A stretch of 64,000 nucleotides of DNA from Candidatus Bathyarchaeia archaeon (GTDB lineage: Archaea > Thermoproteota > Bathyarchaeia > Bathyarchaeales > Bathycorpusculaceae). Position numbers and translations under genes: made by a program. The DNA lies in contig JBEKOM010000001.1 of NCBI GenBank assembly GCA_049521795.1, positions 544,001 through 608,000 on the forward strand, in the 5' to 3' direction. Under the pieces are notes generated by a model. That model was given only the letters and a program-made list of their open reading frames with translations. It searched no databases and was not told the origin of the DNA. Shown here in pieces: positions 40,212 through 61,484 of the stretch; within the stretch, counting starts at the first letter, position 1, and each line of letters begins with the position of its first letter.

Positions 40212-40442
40212 CTACTTGGTTGTTGTTGTTGCCTTTGGTGTTTCCTTCTTCATCAGGGCCCATGCGGCTATTATGATGCCAACCAAGCCGATGACTCCGG
40301 CTAAACCGTAAAAGTACCAACCATTGCCTGAACCGTAGGCTATCCCGAAGTCGTAAGCACCGGAATAGCGGACCGCGCCGAGTATTAGAGCAATGATGAT
40401 CAGTATAGCACCGAGGCCCACACCTATAGTCTTGCTATTCAA
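40212..40442 (-). CDS. Small two-TM membrane protein
   Basis: Two hydrophobic helices; GAGGT SD and TTTAAATA box upstream. Confidence 0.7.
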   Translation of the reverse strand: MNSKTIGVGLGAILIIIALILGAVRYSGAYDFGIAYGSGNGWYFYGLAGVIGLVGIIIAAWALMKKETPKATTTTK

Positions 40443-40847
40443 TTTTTTAACCTCTTGCCTAGGCGTTTAGGAGTAAGTGCTATTTAAAATACTCGCAGCT
40501 GGGTTCTGGTACCTCTTCGTCTGTTTTATCTCCTTGTTACTTTTCGTCTGTTACATTCAAAACGGGCCCATATGAGCTTTCTAGACTTTTTTGTCATGGT
40601 TTTTTGTAGCGCGCACCCCGACAAGGTTTTAAATTAGCAATTACAGAGAACATTATAGAAGAATGAGGGGAAGGGCAGGATTTTTTCTCCTTTCTCCCTT
40701 TCTTGCCCTTTCCCCTCTCTCTCTTCTCCTTCTGGTGCAGTCTTGGCACTTAGTATCGCGTACGCTATTACGGCTTATGAAAGATAGTTCTAGAAGAATC
40801 ATCTATTCACTCATGGCTGATTGGCGATTTTTCCTCTGTGAAGTTGT

Positions 40848-41048
40848 TTGGGACATCGCAAAAGCAAATGGGTTGTCGCAAGAAAAGAAGGCAAGCATCC
40901 GATTCGCATTGTTGCTGGAACACATTTTCGCTTGAAAAGAACCGCTATCAAGAAAGCTGGACAACTCAACCGAGCCTTCAGGCCTAGAAAAGATATTCGC
41001 TTCGTCGTTAGGCGTGAGGGTTGGAACAGAAAACGCTGGTATTCCTGA
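40848..41048 (+). CDS. Small Arg/Lys-rich hypothetical protein (passenger)
   Basis: 66-aa basic ORF inside the element. Confidence 0.45.
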   Translation: MGHRKSKWVVARKEGKHPIRIVAGTHFRLKRTAIKKAGQLNRAFRPRKDIRFVVRREGWNRKRWYS

Positions 41049-41059
41049 CAACAGTTGTC

Positions 41060-41317
41060 TTAGGCTTTGCGTTTCCGAGGCAGCGCAAGGTAGAAGCCGA
41101 TCAACATTACTGCGAAAGGATACATCCCAGTTAGAAAGGTGTTTACCGTTGAGAAAGGAAGAAAAAGAGCAAAGGGCTGGAAAATTAATGCGACGACATA
41201 CCTCAAGTTATCCATACCTTGCGCGCTAACCAAATAGCTGACAGAGTTTATCGCAATTCCTGCGCAGAACCCATAGATCACTAAGAATATGCCTATACTA
41301 CGTCGGTTTAGTTTCAT
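41060..41317 (-). CDS. Small membrane protein (passenger)
   Basis: 85 aa from the internal ATG; 2-3 TM helices and basic tail. Confidence 0.6.
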   Translation of the reverse strand: MKLNRRSIGIFLVIYGFCAGIAINSVSYLVSAQGMDNLRYVVALIFQPFALFLPFSTVNTFLTGMYPFAVMLIGFYLALPRKRKA

Positions 41318-41363
41318 TAGCTTCAGAGGAAAAATGCTAAATTCAACCTCTGAGTATGTTTGA

Positions 41364-42047
41364 ATGGAAGAGGGAGAGGGGAGAAGCGTCTTGAAAGGCA
41401 TTATAGTGGTAATTGTCGTATACTTGCTTGTCGTGATTTGTCTCTGTAGCCCAATAGCGAATGCTGATTCGACAACGATTCTTGAGCGAAAACAAAACTT
41501 CATCGTTTACCGCGACACCTTGACTGATGGAACGGGATTGATTGGTTCGGACTTCGGCTATGTTATGCATTCTGGTGAAACTCTTTTTGTTTCATGGAAA
41601 ACAACTGAAACTATCTTCCCTGACCCAATCGTATGGCTATTAACGCAACAACAAAAAGACCATTGGAACTTTGCTGCTGGCGGTGCAATACTCTCTCCTT
41701 ATGGGTATCTTTTGAAAAAAAGTGGACATCAGGCGAGTTTCACTTTTACAGCTCAACAAGATGCAACCTATTATGTCGTTATTCATAACATTGCTTGGGG
41801 AGCATTAGATATTAGTGGACCAACATTAAACGTGGAAGCCTACGAGGCTGATCTGACCATCCCAAGTGCTCCATCTAATCCAACTCAGCCAACGAACCCA
41901 TCAGTCGGTGGAACTTGGAGTCCGATAACGAATCTTGATCTGTTTAATCATTGGGAAAGCTTGGTCTTTCTGATGATAGCATTGATAACATTGGTCGTAT
42001 GTGTTCAGAAATCTCATAATTTTTTAAACGCTAGCCATCATAGATAA
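41364..42047 (+). CDS. Secreted protein with Pro/Thr linker and VGG-TM C-terminal anchor (passenger)
   Basis: Signal peptide, beta-rich domain, PSAPSNPTQPTNPS-VGG-x-x-x-P, TM helix. Confidence 0.75.
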   Translation: MEEGEGRSVLKGIIVVIVVYLLVVICLCSPIANADSTTILERKQNFIVYRDTLTDGTGLIGSDFGYVMHSGETLFVSWKTTETIFPDPIVWLLTQQQKDHWNFAAGGAILSPYGYLLKKSGHQASFTFTAQQDATYYVVIHNIAWGALDISGPTLNVEAYEADLTIPSAPSNPTQPTNPSVGGTWSPITNLDLFNHWESLVFLMIALITLVVCVQKSHNFLNASHHR

Positions 42048-42184
42048 GTTTACAGTATCTAGAAAAAGAACCATAAGTCAAGGCATGGCAATCGTAGAAA
42101 TAAAAACAAAAATAGAATATCTAGAAAAGGGCTTTAACGAACTCAAAACAAATGCCACTTGGAAGAAAAGCTAGCATCTCCCTT

Positions 42185-43297
42185 CTATTTTTTGCTTGCG
42201 TTTTGAATCAATGTCAACCACTTGTTTTTTCCTTCTACCGTGATACCGCAAGCTTCCGCTGGTGTTCTTCCTTCTAATGCTTCGTGTGGTCTGATGTAGT
42301 TGTGGAAAATCTGATAACCTGAGAGAATCGGCGTTTCTTTGGTTTTGAGTCCTCGCATGGTTTTTTCTCTGTCTCTGATTTCTCCGTTGAACCTTTCCAT
42401 CTTGTTGTTATTTCTATCTCCTCTAAAGGCGATGTGTCTAACGTGTTGGGTTCGTGGGCCCTTCCTTGTCCAGAAGGCTTTTTTGTAAGCATCATGATAA
42501 ATTAGCAAACCATCGGTTATCAATGTGGCAGGTTTCTTTCCCATTAATTGTTCTCCTAGTTCGAAGAGTTTTCTTGCGTCATGCTTGTACTTTGTCTCTG
42601 CAACTTCCTGAGCAATCCAGAAACGAGTCTCATCGTCCAACAAAGCGAAAACATACTTCATGTTGCCTTTGACTTTAACGTATAATTCGTCGGCTCTCCA
42701 TGTGTCGCTTACGTTAGGCTTGAAATTCTCAACATAATCCTTCATCAATTTAACGTACTTCTTGATCCACATGAAAACGGTTTTATGAGTAACTTCCACG
42801 CCTAACAATTTTAGCGATTTCTGAGTATTCCTTAAAGACTCTCCGCTGAAATATAGTTGCATGGCAGAGGTGATAGCTTGAGGATTATGCTTCATTCTTT
42901 CAAAGCCAATGTTAATGGTAAAGTAGTGGTGACAATCTCGGCAATGGAACTTCTGAATAGCTCCTGTCTTATTCCTTCTAATTCCATCTTTCTTGAGGTT
43001 GCTTGAACCGCAATATTGGCAATCCTGAACATTTACCTCTTGAATAACTCGGCTAGTTTGGACTTCTTTTCTGATTTGGCTTGAAAATTCAACTGCAAAA
43101 ATATGTTTGCACTTTTCATGGCGATAAACATGATCTGCACATTCACAGTACCATTCTCCAGAGACTTTGAAAACCTTGTATTCTCCGTTGTTTGACTGTG
43201 ATTTTACAACGTATGTCTCTGCATCGATTCTATTGATCTGGTTTGGCATTTTTGCGATGTCTAAGCCTTTTTGTTCACGTTGGTTCAATGTTGCCAT
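42185..43297 (-). CDS. IS6-family DDE transposase with N-terminal SWIM and Zn-ribbon domains
   Basis: CECAD...CKH (SWIM), CQYC...CRDC, WRADELY, LITDG, NNKMER, HNYIRPH. Confidence 0.93.
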   Translation of the reverse strand: MATLNQREQKGLDIAKMPNQINRIDAETYVVKSQSNNGEYKVFKVSGEWYCECADHVYRHEKCKHIFAVEFSSQIRKEVQTSRVIQEVNVQDCQYCGSSNLKKDGIRRNKTGAIQKFHCRDCHHYFTINIGFERMKHNPQAITSAMQLYFSGESLRNTQKSLKLLGVEVTHKTVFMWIKKYVKLMKDYVENFKPNVSDTWRADELYVKVKGNMKYVFALLDDETRFWIAQEVAETKYKHDARKLFELGEQLMGKKPATLITDGLLIYHDAYKKAFWTRKGPRTQHVRHIAFRGDRNNNKMERFNGEIRDREKTMRGLKTKETPILSGYQIFHNYIRPHEALEGRTPAEACGITVEGKNKWLTLIQNASKK

Positions 43298-43420
43298 GTT
43301 ACTACACCACTATCTAGTAGTATAGTATTAAACAGCTATTTAAGGCTTACTACGAACGCACTACCACAACATAATAAGCTAAAACTATTTATACGACCTA
43401 GTAGTATTAACTATCGGTGA

Positions 43421-43591
43421 TTGAAAACGCCAACAAATGAAAAAGAACAAATCGTAACCTCTCTGAAGGTTAGCCCTCAGTTATGGAAGCAAGCCAAAAT
43501 AGCAGCTCTTGAATGCGACATAACTCTGGGCGAACTCATAGACCAAGCTGTGCGAGATTGGATACAGAAACAGGAGAAAGGCAAAAAATGA
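43421..43591 (+). CDS. 56-aa ribbon-helix-helix regulator divergent from the transposase
   Basis: Translated by hand: MKTPTNEKEQIVTSLKVSPQLWKQAKIAALECDITLGELIDQAVRDWI...; GGTGA upstream; ATGA overlap with next gene. Confidence 0.8.
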   Translation: MKTPTNEKEQIVTSLKVSPQLWKQAKIAALECDITLGELIDQAVRDWIQKQEKGKK

Positions 43592-44082
43592 ATGAAGCAA
43601 CAGAAAAATACCTTCAAAACGTACTTGACAAGGGCAAGCAAAAAATAAACAAACAATTTATTCCGAGAATAAACCGCAATTACCATCAACAAACATTGGC
43701 TACGTTTAGAATGGACAGAGCATTAAAACACGATTTGGCATCTGCAAAGGCATTTCACGCTTCAAAAGGATTCATGTTCTACCAGTTTGCTGATATTTAC
43801 ACGATACTCGGTAACCTAGTTCAAAATCTGATGGAGAATGCAATACAGAATATTGCGGATTTGGATCAATTAAAGGAGAGCATTAAAGAAATCCGCGATA
43901 CGCTTGGAATGGATGTGTCAAAGGTGAAGGCTGACATCGAAGGCATTAAAGCAACCGTTAACTCAAAAGAAATTGCTATACTTGCCAAATTTGCGGAAGA
44001 CTTTAACAAACAGGTAGAAGAAACAAAGAGGAAGCTAGAAGAATACGCCAAGAAAATGAGGGAAAACGACCTTGCCTCATGA
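43588..44082 (+). CDS. Coiled-coil hypothetical protein (passenger)
   Basis: ATG overlapping the RHH stop; heptad-rich C-terminal half. Confidence 0.75.
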   Translation: MNEATEKYLQNVLDKGKQKINKQFIPRINRNYHQQTLATFRMDRALKHDLASAKAFHASKGFMFYQFADIYTILGNLVQNLMENAIQNIADLDQLKESIKEIRDTLGMDVSKVKADIEGIKATVNSKEIAILAKFAEDFNKQVEETKRKLEEYAKKMRENDLAS

Positions 44083-44410
44083 TACCGTCACAGAAATCAT
44101 CGATACTCTTACAGAATTAAAACGTATGCATCAGCTTAACTTAGAGCTTCTTGAACAGTTAAGCGTATCCTGTAGTTGGCTTATGGAACATAATGTTCCA
44201 ATACCGAATGCAGAGACCATTTGCTCTTTGCTCAAGAAGGCAACGATACTGTTGAGCGAAATCCAAGCTGACCAGCCAAAGATTCTTCAATATAAAAAGC
44301 TAGCAGACGAAAAGAAACAGCCTTTCAAAACAGACGACAAGGAAACAGAACCCGCAGCTGGAGGCGCAACTGCGCGCTTGAGAGAAAGCGGTTTGACCTT
44401 TAATTCTTGA
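44072..44410 (+). CDS. Helical hypothetical protein reading through the right inverted repeat
   Basis: Overlaps upstream stop; codons LADEKKQPFKTDDKETEP lie on the IR and the stop is in target DNA. Confidence 0.65.
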   Translation: MPHDTVTEIIDTLTELKRMHQLNLELLEQLSVSCSWLMEHNVPIPNAETICSLLKKATILLSEIQADQPKILQYKKLADEKKQPFKTDDKETEPAAGGATARLRESGLTFNS

Positions 44411-58679: not shown

Positions 58680-59858
58680 TTAAGCGTGTATCGCTTGTTT
58701 GAGTATGTCTGTGTATTTTTGGGCGACCTTTGGCCATATGAAGCTTCGACTGTATCTGTAAGCTTTCTTCTCTATGTCTCTTCTCAGGTCTTCGTTTTCT
58801 AGAAGTCTGTTCACTTCTTCGGCGATTGAGCCTGGGTTTTTAAACTCGCAGAACAAGCCTCGTCCGTGAGACAGCACCTCTTTAGCGTGGAGGTAGGGAG
58901 TTGATACTACTGCTCTACCGGCTCCTAGAGCGTAGACTAATGTGCCGCTGCTGATTTGGTTTGGGCCGATGTAGGGTGTGATGTAGATGTCTGTGGCGTG
59001 GAGGTACCTTATTAGTTCTCTTTTTGTTAGGAAGCGGTTGTGAAATCTGACGTGATTCTTTAGCCCCAGTTGGTCGACTAGTTTGATGAGGTTCATGCGG
59101 TATGATTCGCCTTCGATTTTTCTTACTTCGGGGTGTGTTTCGCCGATTATTAGGTAGAGTATGTTTGGATGTTTTTCAACTAGGGGTGGGAGTGCTTGAA
59201 TGGCGTACTCGATGCCTTTGCCTCCGTTTATTAGGCCGAAAGTGGACAGGATGGTTCTTCCTTTCAAACCCAGCGAAGGCTTTACGCTGTCACTAGTTAA
59301 GAAAGGGATGTCTGGGCAACCGTGTTGGACGACGTTGATTTTCTTGTTCGGGACGTCGTATTCCTTGAGAATGTTCTTGCCGGCTTTAGCCATGACCACG
59401 ATTGCTTTGCTGTAAGCGGTGATTTCTTTCAGCACGTTTCGTGCTTTCGGCTCAAAGTCTGGTTGGACTGTATGAAGTGTGGTTATGACCGGTTTCTGTA
59501 CGCTTTGTAGGAAGGAGAGAATATACTTTCCCCATTCTCCTCCGTATATTCCGAATTCATGTTGCAGGTTTACTACGTTGATTCGGGATGAGTTGATGTA
59601 GTTGGCGGCTTGAACATAATCCTCTTCATAATCCTGCCTTATCTGTTGTTTGACTCGGCTGTCGTAGTCGTAGATTGTCTCTATTTCGTTTACGCTTATG
59701 ACTCGGGCTGGGGCAAATTCAGCGAGAAGGTCTATGGAGTCGATTAGGTCTTTCGTGAAGGTGGCTATGCCGCATTCTCTGGGGGTGTATGTGCCTAGAA
59801 AGGCAATGTGTTCTTCGTTTGATTCTGGAACTCGAGGTTTTGTGGACAATTCTGACAT
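58680..59858 (-). CDS. GT4 family glycosyltransferase
   Basis: Y-x-PRECGIATFT, QHEFGIYGG, KGIE, G-x-THP, SSGTL, VVSTPY. Confidence 0.92.
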   Translation of the reverse strand: MSELSTKPRVPESNEEHIAFLGTYTPRECGIATFTKDLIDSIDLLAEFAPARVISVNEIETIYDYDSRVKQQIRQDYEEDYVQAANYINSSRINVVNLQHEFGIYGGEWGKYILSFLQSVQKPVITTLHTVQPDFEPKARNVLKEITAYSKAIVVMAKAGKNILKEYDVPNKKINVVQHGCPDIPFLTSDSVKPSLGLKGRTILSTFGLINGGKGIEYAIQALPPLVEKHPNILYLIIGETHPEVRKIEGESYRMNLIKLVDQLGLKNHVRFHNRFLTKRELIRYLHATDIYITPYIGPNQISSGTLVYALGAGRAVVSTPYLHAKEVLSHGRGLFCEFKNPGSIAEEVNRLLENEDLRRDIEKKAYRYSRSFIWPKVAQKYTDILKQAIHA

Positions 59859-60086
59859 TACCTTGCCTGAATTAGCGCGCGCTAAGTGTTAAATACTTTT
59901 CAGACTTCGCATACAATGATTACTGAGTAGCGCGCGCGGAAACGCAAAGGAAACACCGCTAGCCCGCATCATAAACGATTATGATTGGCAAAGAAAAGCT
60001 CTGATTAAGACTCTAGTAGAAAAAGGACCGATGGGGCTGCGCGCGCCAGTCCGTTGCTAAATTAGCTTTTATGTGTTTATTCCGCT

Positions 60087-60805
60087 GGTTCTGTTAACTC
60101 TTGGGCGCTATAGTGAGCTTTGGAAATGTCTGTTAACCATCGGCGCTTTTTTTGCACGAGATAATGATGTGTCTTGATACAAATGGCGATTAGGGAATTA
60201 ACCGAGCAGAAAAAAGAGGGAAGCCTGAAACCAGAATAGGATCAGTTGAGGTTATTTTTCCTTCTTCGGCGTGGGCATAAGGCCGAGTTGCTGCATCAAG
60301 CTCAAAGTATCATACCTTGACCAGCCTTCCACGAACTTGCCCCCGGCGAAGCGGTCAATCTGGATCTCCCACACCGTTATCTTCTTGTTGGTAGGAGGGA
60401 TTCCCATAAATGCACCTTTGTTTGTGCCAGTCCCTGTAAGGCGCACTGCTACCTTGTCTCCTTCGGCGACCATGTCATCAATGGTGAAATGAAGGTCTGG
60501 AAAAGCGCTGTAGAACTCGCTGATATGTTGTTTATAGTCCTTGATGCCGTGTATATCCCTGCCAGTGCTACTGTGATAGACGATGTCGGTGGCGTATAAC
60601 TCGTCTATTACGGCCAGGGCCGCTTCCTTCCCCTCGTTGCACTCCTCATACAAACGACGCTCGAGTGCCTTAATTTCTTTCGCTGACATGACAAATCACC
60701 TGCTTATTGCATTAACTGTATCTGTTATTTATAACATTAAAGTATCCTCTCAGGTAGCACGTGCTACTTCGTAGTCCATGCGCGCGCCGAAGGGTTAACA
60801 GAACC
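60087..60805. mobile_element. 719-bp non-autonomous IS6-type insertion cassette carrying one gene
   Basis: IRs GGTTCTGTTAACTCTTGGGCGC / GGTTCTGTTAACCCTTCGGCGC (20/22); flanking 8-mers ATTCCGCT (60079-60086) and ATTCAGCT (60806-60813); no transposase inside. Confidence 0.88.
60252..60689 (-). CDS. SnoaL-like ester cyclase family protein
   Basis: AFPDLHFTIDDMVAEGDKV, GTNKGAFMGIPPTNK, LMQQLG; AGGTGA SD. Confidence 0.93.
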   Translation of the reverse strand: MSAKEIKALERRLYEECNEGKEAALAVIDELYATDIVYHSSTGRDIHGIKDYKQHISEFYSAFPDLHFTIDDMVAEGDKVAVRLTGTGTNKGAFMGIPPTNKKITVWEIQIDRFAGGKFVEGWSRYDTLSLMQQLGLMPTPKKEK

Positions 60806-61280
60806 ATTCAGCTCATTTTGCAAGTAATGTTATGGATCGTGCTTTTTCTACGATTTGCATCCTGAGTGCAGCAACCGCATTCAGAAGTTTGACAATCCTT
60901 ATCAGACAATGGTTAAGCTGGATTATAAGGGCGAAGTTTCAAGAGCCATCGAAGCTGAAACTGGTGAAAAACTGGCTTTTCCTAGGTTGCCGCAGGACAT
61001 TCAGGATCGCTATGAGAATTGGAGGGCCGAGTGTAACAAGCGGTTTGATGAGGGTGAAGGCGAATGGCGACTAAGAAGCATTTTGAACGTGTTGACTGAT
61101 GAGGCTAAGGAACTGTTGACCTCCATAGTTCAGCATGGCAGTTACGAGCGACAGTCCATCATCACCGACATGAAGAAGGGGGACGAGTTGAAGCTGTTGA
61201 TTAACTGCGGTTTGGTGGAGAAGTTTGGGGACACGATTGTTCCGACTAAACAAGCTCGGAAAATGGTGAAGCTAGTTTGA

Positions 61281-61484
61281 TTACATTATTCCCATTTTCT
61301 TTTCGTAAGGCTTGCTCGTTCCTGCATAAACAGCAATAGTCTTGTCTGACACGATCATCGTAAACCGTTTCAAGTCATCCCGAGTCATCTCATACTCTTC
61401 TGTCAACTGCTTCACCCTCTCCGCTCTCTCTCGATGAGGCCACGTGGCATCCTCGGTTTTTCCATTTGCAAGTGACTCCTTCAC
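61281..61484 (-). CDS. Hypothetical small protein or gene remnant
   Basis: 67-aa ORF whose stop abuts the stop of the convergent gene. Confidence 0.35.
   Translation of the reverse strand: MKESLANGKTEDATWPHRERAERVKQLTEEYEMTRDDLKRFTMIVSDKTIAVYAGTSKPYEKKMGIM

Follow-up and report, generated by a model that had tools for sequence, protein, structure and literature searches.

The stretch of DNA analysed here (the window, 64 kb; G000:C1:544001-608000) comes from a Candidatus Bathyarchaeia archaeon whose assembly measures 2.44 Mb and is 98.75% complete. At positions 60087-60805 it holds a 719-bp element in which one SnoaL-like gene, with its own promoter, is enclosed between inverted repeats of IS6-like insertion sequence (IS) type. 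This element is probably a mobile insertion cassette of an archaeal IS6-like family, moved in trans. An earlier prediction, made from the letters of the window, had proposed a non-autonomous, IS6-ended cassette at this place; the finding is real and the earlier interpretation was right in large part.

Structure and insertion site of the element

The element was delimited by direct reading of positions 59700-61200 and by a repeat search of the window. Its ends and flanks comprise the following features (positions are those of the window):

60087-60805: whole element, 719 bp (60079-60813 once both flanking 8-mers are included)
60079-60086: left copy of the 8-bp target-site duplication, ATTCCGCT
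60087-60108, plus strand: left terminal inverted repeat, GGTTCTGTTAACTCTTGGGCGC
60087-60194: left end module, 108 bp, without homology to SnoaL loci elsewhere
60129-60146, plus strand: subterminal repeat, a second copy of the repeat core, TCTGTTAACCATCGGCGC, whose GTTAAC begins 47 nt from the tip
60754-60767: perfect 14-bp palindrome, GTAGCACGTGCTAC, in the right end module
60784-60805, minus strand: right terminal inverted repeat, GGTTCTGTTAACCCTTCGGCGC (reverse complement reading)
60806-60813: right copy of the 8-bp target-site duplication, ATTCAGCT

Reading and repeat search agree with the dimensions that had been predicted: the 22-bp repeats are identical at 20/22 positions (the repeat search reports arms of 23 nt, 60086-60108 and 60784-60806, at 91%) and the flanking 8-mers ATTCCGCT and ATTCAGCT match at 7 of 8. 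The second internal copy of the repeat core, announced at 60129, is also present. Both ends start with GGTTCTG. With one mismatch or fewer, the 12-mer GGTTCTGTTAAC is confined in the window to the two cassette ends, for an expectation of 0.27; in the shuffle control, 5 of 100 shuffles reached at least two matches, and the 12-mer by itself is only mildly unusual. Because of this control, the case was built on the complete architecture and not on the 12-mer: chance is exceeded by the 22-nt inverted pairing combined with the 8-bp repeat.

The right end module is 63 bp long and its terminal repeat has no subterminal GTTAAC copy. The palindrome GTAGCACGTGCTAC stands at the position where other right-type ends hold a CATGGA..TCCATG inverted repeat together with the subterminal GTTAAC. 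It is a perfect 14-bp palindrome as had been claimed, but its place is the right end module, beyond the captured promoter, and not among the signals of the gene with which it had been listed. It is unique in the 2.44-Mb genome (1 exact match), where 5 further sites resemble it with 2 mismatches. Another palindrome, with a CACGTG core (CGATGAGGCCACGTGGCATCCTCG), was seen at 61432-61455 of the window, ~670 bp off that of the cassette.

A tblastn search for the family transposase within 60087-60805 gave no match. The sole long open reading frame (ORF) is the SnoaL-like gene, and the cassette therefore has no transposase gene. As this 145-aa gene is intact, the element is not a miniature inverted-repeat transposable element (MITE), a class defined by zero coding capacity.

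The site of insertion is defined by two features:

60041-60062, plus strand: terminal inverted repeat of an IS5/IS1182-like element, GCGCGCCAGTCCGTTGCTAAAT, the target tip
60816-60896, minus strand: last 27 codons of an IS5/IS1182-like transposase (remnant), with the stop codon TGA at 60813-60815

The cassette is inserted between the stop codon of this transposase and the terminal repeat, i.e., in the non-coding tip of the IS. In tblastn, the 27-codon remnant matches the 330-aa transposase of locus L131 from G043 at 63% identity over 27 aa (E 2.6e-5); this locus holds a full element of ~1.1 kb (L131:474-1593) with the repeats GCGCGCCAGC(T/C)TGTTGCTAAAT at either end, and the target stretch in G043 is the right end of this element. 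The 330-aa transposase matches Pfam DDE_Tnp_1 (5.2e-28)/DUF772, and its top NCBIfam models are IS1182 and IS5, all below cut-off. The terminal repeats of the IS5/IS1182-like remnant begin with GCGCGCC, and other genera of the family have the element in full.

Several genomes have the target without the insertion. In G001, which belongs to the same genus, an 86-nt uninterrupted stretch is 84% identical across the junction after removal of the 719 bp and one 8-mer, and it has one equivalent of the 8-mer. Further uninterrupted copies are present in G043 (two), G057, G085 and G013, and in the metagenome runs X1-X3 loose contig ends at 60079 and 60081 run on into the uninterrupted IS tip. In X1 the summed depth of the tip is 254.6, compared with 22.6 for the remaining stretch, a difference of about eleven-fold, in keeping with an element present in many copies in the community. 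Samples with this stretch include peat and freshwater sediment. Across the left junction, contigs identical to the window run through in X1 and X3; across the right junction they do so in all three runs X1, X2 and X3, of which X1 may be the source sample. The left-junction contig of X2 has 30 nt of flank, one short of the bridging rule, and in X4 a ~97%-identical variant bridges both junctions. The assembly is not at fault for the cassette structure.

The expectation that the flanks would join across the site was thus borne out by the uninterrupted copies, but the interrupted target is an IS5/IS1182-like tip and not a gene. An interrupted host gene was rejected, as the joined flanks yield no long ORF and the genes flanking the site in G001 are not orthologous to those of the window. 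Two other identities of the target were set aside: an RNA gene, as Rfam was blank on the target (RNase_MRP at E 0.88 only) and on the uninterrupted copies, and a promoter module common to unrelated genes, which was dropped once the stretch was shown to be the IS tip. The flanking ORF at 60855-61280 (141 aa) has no Pfam match and overlaps the transposase remnant on the opposite strand. It is probably spurious, and the annotation of this region gains from its recognition and from that of the site as a nest of mobile-element remnants.

The SnoaL-like gene as a captured transcription unit

Between the two end modules lie the gene and its signals:

60252-60689, minus strand: intact SnoaL-like (NTF2-fold) gene, 145 aa, Pfam PF07366 (6.8e-37)
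60695-60701, minus strand: Shine-Dalgarno site, AGGTGAT
60726-60736, minus strand: TATA-like box, GTTATAAATAA
60195-60742, minus strand: captured unit, made up of TATA box, 5' leader with Shine-Dalgarno site, coding sequence and T-rich 3' end

The ORF list and the PF07366 match upheld the claim that a SnoaL-like gene is the only content of the element, and the announced Shine-Dalgarno site and TATA-like box lie upstream of it. The match scores 126.5 bits (cut-off 28.4) and aligns residues 11-135 with positions 4-126 of the 126 positions of the model. NCBIfam subfamily models score below cut-off on the protein, so that a specific enzyme was not assigned.

The limits of the captured DNA were read from homologues that have no element around them. 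By blastn against 80 metagenome homologues, homology covers at most ~60195-60742 (60196-60732 for L174, 60195-60742 for L206). Within it, the alignments show that the TATA box, the GGTGAT site and the T-tract are conserved, and homology ends at those limits; the palindrome lies outside it. The cassette TATA box aligns with ATTATATATAAT and GGTGATTTGTCATG of 10 homologues without repeats. Because homology to repeat-less homologues includes the TATA box and the Shine-Dalgarno site and then stops, the promoter is the gene's own, in agreement with the original prediction. The limits are resolved to a few bases and match those of a whole promoter-to-terminator unit. A scan of the stretch with promoter and terminator models returned nothing, these models being bacterial and not applicable to archaea.

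SnoaL homologues elsewhere are ordinary genes without repeats. Of 301 genomes sampled from the class, 47 have them (G000 counted); the closest matches in other genomes, at 56-66% aa identity, come from other families (f24 and f11), and metagenome homologues of equal length reach 93%. Repeats of the element flank the gene at none of 30 genome loci and none of 80 metagenome loci, and no IS6-like transposase was found at these 110 loci.

The motif GCGCGCGC was observed 6-10 nt upstream of the TATA box in several SnoaL homologues (L172, L180, L186, L206), and also shortly downstream of some. In the window, the motif was noted at 59870-59940, 60039-60047 and 60780-60787, and the 270-bp intergenic region holds three such motifs. 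A capture through GCGCGCGC was considered: the motif at 60780-60787 abuts the right repeat of the cassette, and others flank several homologues, but the left junction is without one. Candidate roles for the motif are a promoter element, an IS tip or a recombination site, and the IS5/IS1182-like element may explain some of the GCGCGCGC motifs of this genome.

IS6-like relatives, sister cassettes and target sites

The window holds an autonomous relative of the cassette:

40502-44352: autonomous IS6-like cargo transposon, 3851 bp (the 3.85-kb element), with a perfect duplication, CGCAGCTG
42185-43297, minus strand: its transposase, 370 aa

The ends of the 3.85-kb element are GGTTCTGG on one side and GGTTCTGT on the other, and neither of its two cargo ORFs, of 227 and 189 aa, reaches the cut-off of a Pfam family. 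The cassette had been said to share the terminus of this element: this is true of GGTTCTG but not of the whole 22-mers, which agree at 16/22 positions (counted by eye). The 370-aa transposase matches Pfam DDE_Tnp_IS240 (3.1e-16); transposases of the family score 60.2 and 69.1 bits with this model (cut-off 27), are 370-382 aa long and bear N-terminal zinc-binding motifs, SWIM-like and zinc-ribbon. The genome holds three autonomous elements with GGTTCTG ends, 8/8 duplications and transposases of 370 aa or similar, the two others being 4147 and 7161 bp long and located at C1:88313-99628. With 3.85-7.16 kb and cargo ORFs, routinely on both sides of the transposase, the autonomous relatives depart from the compact, single-ORF form of ~0.7-0.9 kb that the sections of PMC7986276 used here give as typical of IS6. 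In this genome, the best match to the cassette 22-mers (C1:88283-88304, 2 mismatches) is the end of a truncated element whose transposase is reduced to residues 212-369.

A scan of 185,579 species genomes for the 19-nt core of the cassette ends yielded at least 120 loci; among the matches listed, most are from Bathyarchaeia, Nitrososphaerota/Thaumarchaeota and Asgard metagenome-assembled genomes, with some chance bacterial matches. The same core, of 16-19 nt, is common to the ends of many Bathyarchaeia elements. These ends are bipartite: a second GTTAA[CG] is present at +25..+70 in 40 of the 76 distinct family ends that had enough sequence (mean 2.1 and maximum 6 in shuffles), with modes at +35-39 and +45-49, and the left end of the cassette has it at +47. 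Of 401 genomes sampled from the class, G000 counted, 24 have the exact 19-nt motif and 0 its reversed-pattern control. Ten predicted viral contigs also have the motif, of which three or four hold genuine bipartite ends, one of them with a transposase (IMG/VR L267, L270, L271); family elements may ride on archaeal viruses or proviruses.

A sister transposase had been considered likely for the cassette. The transposases tied to cassette-like ends at six loci (L028, L032, L039, L051, L059, L064) share 33-47% identity with that of the 3.85-kb element, which fits this view; all 12 transposase matches in end loci are 33-78% identical to it. Other genomes hold complete autonomous elements with this core, of 6570, 5819 and 5818 bp, with 8/8 duplications and a transposase match inside an end locus of each; the 6570-bp element lies at G361:C1:265763-272332. 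Because these elements carry the core, cognate partners exist in related genomes, as anticipated, but none is intact in this one.

The prediction that other elements would have these repeats thus holds for autonomous elements of 5.8-6.6 kb, and it extends to elements without a transposase. Perfect 8/8 duplications flank three autonomous and one transposase-less element in the genome itself and five transposase-less and three autonomous elements elsewhere; the five transposase-less pairs were found among 80 fully retrieved loci. The transposase-less elements are as follows:

364 bp and 502 bp: no ORF, 8/8 duplications
628 bp: 107-aa ORF, 8/8 duplication
894 bp: MazE/AbrB-like ORF and two small ORFs, 8/8 duplication
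1150 bp: regulator with a helix-turn-helix plus MEDS domain, 8/8 duplication
509 bp: ORF matching Pfam NIPSNAP at 19.8 bits, below the cut-off of 22.3, 7/8 duplication
1591 bp, at G000:C2:127958-129548 (L170): 237-aa ORF (no Pfam match) and 71-aa ORF, perfect duplication CTTTTCGG

The 1591-bp element has 23/26 repeats of another subtype (GGTTCTGTAAACTC...). The 628-bp cassette has a counterpart of 635 bp in a second genome: the two are 85% identical over their full length, each genome has one full copy, and the 1.5-kb flanks on either side are without similarity in blastn and tblastx. As judged from these sequences, this pair is the best evidence that cassettes move as units. A further sister, in G001, measures 735 bp, has repeats that match at 21/22 and one 168-aa ORF, and is nested in a 1074-bp unit with a perfect CTTTATCA duplication. 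Ahead of the 735-bp cassette, at L010:6623-6961, G001 has a solo left end, 83% identical to the first 64 bp of our cassette, with ~340 bp of unrelated sequence, which suggests that the 1074-bp unit is two cassettes fused or nested.

Insertion sites of the family share a feature. At positions -20..-14 outside the repeat, the A+T content of 121 ends is ~0.70, compared with a background of ~0.58; the cassette has TTTTATG at this place, and the 3.85-kb element is inserted 2 nt from TATTTAAAATA. By eye, TATTTAAAATA reads as the TATA box of a minus-strand ORF (~40240-40443) for a small membrane protein. A fixed orientation with respect to the A/T box was rejected: in the cassette, in the 3.85-kb element and in a 4259-bp element of G001 it is the transposase-distal end that faces the box, whereas the 6570-bp element of G361 is the opposite way round.

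One site is an insertion hot spot. The 8-mer CTTTATCA, located immediately before TTAAGTTTAATAG and a proteasome-subunit gene (Pfam 5.8e-55) and downstream of an MGMT-like gene, was reused by three tandem elements in G000, by two in G001 and by two or more in G361, with exactly this 8-mer between them. The arrays at this site hold different IS6-like elements:

G000:C1:88283-99636 (L171)
L010:6615-11971
G361:C1:265755-272340

Origin, movement and known counterparts of the cassette

For a cassette moved in trans, the bipartite IS6-like ends would have been kept, with a single, complete transcription unit of foreign origin in place of the transposase and cargo between them. Provided in trans, a cognate transposase would bind the terminal and subterminal repeats and insert the cassette at a site adjoining an A/T-rich box, as in other members of the family. 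If the enzyme is IS26-like, a cointegrate, the route given for IS26 in the parts of PMC6807381 and PMC7986276 consulted, might form first and then be resolved as the two copies of the cassette recombine homologously; cut-and-paste could be an alternative route for the long-transposase clade. Once inserted, the SnoaL-like gene would presumably be expressed from its own promoter. This copy is probably old and now immobile in the genome, because its repeats match at 20/22, its duplication at 7/8, its right subterminal repeat is lost and no intact matching transposase is present.

Several results weigh against this reading. The NCBIfam model transpos_IS6 gives the family transposase of the 3.85-kb element 117.5 bits, just below the cut-off of 125. 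No intact transposase with matching ends was found in the 98.75%-complete genome. The cassette is present there as a single copy, and a second site for it was found in none of 40 relatives, 300 class genomes and 80 metagenome loci. Neither the repeats nor the duplication is perfect, and the right end lacks a subterminal repeat. Finally, the exact end motif is rare: in the census of 401 genomes of the class this cassette is the only pair of less than 2 kb, and the failure of that census to find further short pairs with the exact 19-nt motif counts against a large system.

Some of these results also fit a decay in place, in which an autonomous IS6-like transposon bearing the SnoaL-like gene inserted here and an internal deletion then removed the transposase and the other cargo, so that the element never moved as a cassette. 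Besides the single copy, the worn repeats and duplication and the lost right subterminal repeat, such an origin would agree with the cargo that autonomous relatives hold on either side of the transposase and with the truncated relative in the same genome. Nevertheless, the SnoaL-like gene is found in 0 of 133 repeat-bearing loci and an IS6-like transposase at 0 of the 110 SnoaL loci. Both junctions between modules and cargo are the limits of a complete transcription unit, which would take two precise deletions or an earlier capture, and same-size cassettes recur with perfect duplications, one of them at two unrelated sites. We consider decay in place unlikely, although it is the most credible of the alternatives.

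Quite improbable, in our view, is a spread of the SnoaL-like gene at least partly as cargo of the IS5/IS1182-like element and not by IS6-like transposition. The ~97% variant of X4 carries the cassette at an identical point in the IS tip but a different sequence left of 60041, its contig past 60887 goes on, as read by eye, into the adjoining upstream residues of an IS5-like transposase, as if the IS were fuller there, and the tip is multi-copy in the community, as the depths in X1 attest. These data come, however, from one contig per junction, at a depth of 12-13, and from a 30-nt loose end translated by eye. Rearrangement could produce divergent flanks, the IS of the window is an immobile remnant of ~130 bp, and the original entry of the cassette into the IS would be left unexplained. 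A chance inverted repeat around an ordinary chromosomal gene, with no mobile element, has a negligible probability: the 12-mer is not very rare, but the 22-nt pairing, the 8-bp flanking repeat, the family-typical subterminal repeat, the uninterrupted target copies and the lack of such flanks at all 110 homologues contradict it.

The insertion cassette moved in trans is therefore the reading that we retain. A broader proposal is possible, if rather doubtful: the long-transposase IS6-like elements of Bathyarchaeia and neighbouring archaea might form a gene-cassette system, in which bipartite ends would enclose any complete transcription unit and cassettes of one to three genes, moved in trans, would land beside A/T-rich (TATA-like) boxes, hence next to promoters, and would nest in other insertion sequences that carry them on. 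Such a system, if true, would give archaea a transposon-based equivalent of gene-cassette exchange. The cassette itself offers a concrete, testable example of single-gene packaging for horizontal movement in uncultured archaea.

Mobile insertion cassettes are said to have been described by Chen et al. in 1999 for IS231 (IS4 family) in the Bacillus cereus group, MIC231 among them. Like MIC231, the element has no transposase, is bounded by repeats of an autonomous IS and holds an unrelated passenger gene, and a transposase would be needed in trans; it is flanked by a duplication of family length at a site that is uninterrupted elsewhere. Unlike MIC231, it has IS6-like ends and presumably an IS6-like transposase instead of one of the IS4 family, an archaeal host, bipartite ends and an 8-bp duplication.

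In full-text searches of the literature no IS6-type mobile insertion cassette with cargo was found, the surveys of Filee et al. 2007 and Siguier et al. 2014 being outside the search. Nor did these searches yield cargo-carrying IS6-like transposons in Bathyarchaeia: on IS6 in this class they gave an unrelated CRISPR paper alone.

In the passages of the IS6 reviews used here, two MITEs are named, MITEBth2 and MITEHarch3, of 227 and 336 bp and without ORF (PMC7986276, PMC6807381), together with a single passenger-carrying (tIS) member, ISDsp3 (PMC7986276); the cassette adds a gene-carrying form. It resembles the MITEs as a non-autonomous derivative of IS6-type ends and differs from them by a complete gene with its promoter, whereas its 364- and 502-bp relatives are without ORF and share the archaeal ends. 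The same passages place long zinc-finger 'clade h' IS6 transposases in Clostridia (PMC7986276, PMC6807381). Both ISDsp3 with clade h and the archaeal family combine an IS6-type DDE domain with an N-terminal zinc-binding extension and have passengers inside the repeats, but the archaeal relatives are 3.9-7.2 kb long, hold several passengers and encode transposases of 370-382 aa in which SWIM-like and zinc-ribbon motifs occur.

IS26 pseudo-compound transposons and translocatable units are comparable in that IS6-type chemistry moves passengers with 8-bp duplications. They keep one or two whole IS26 copies, whereas the cassette gene is flanked by just ~108 + 63 bp of end sequence. In the part of their paper drawn on here, Harmer and Hall doubt that archaeal and long forms belong to IS6/IS26 (PMC6807381). 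The same part gives, for the repeats of IS6/IS26, a GG start and a G at position 7, with which the GGTTCTG of the cassette agrees at both ends.

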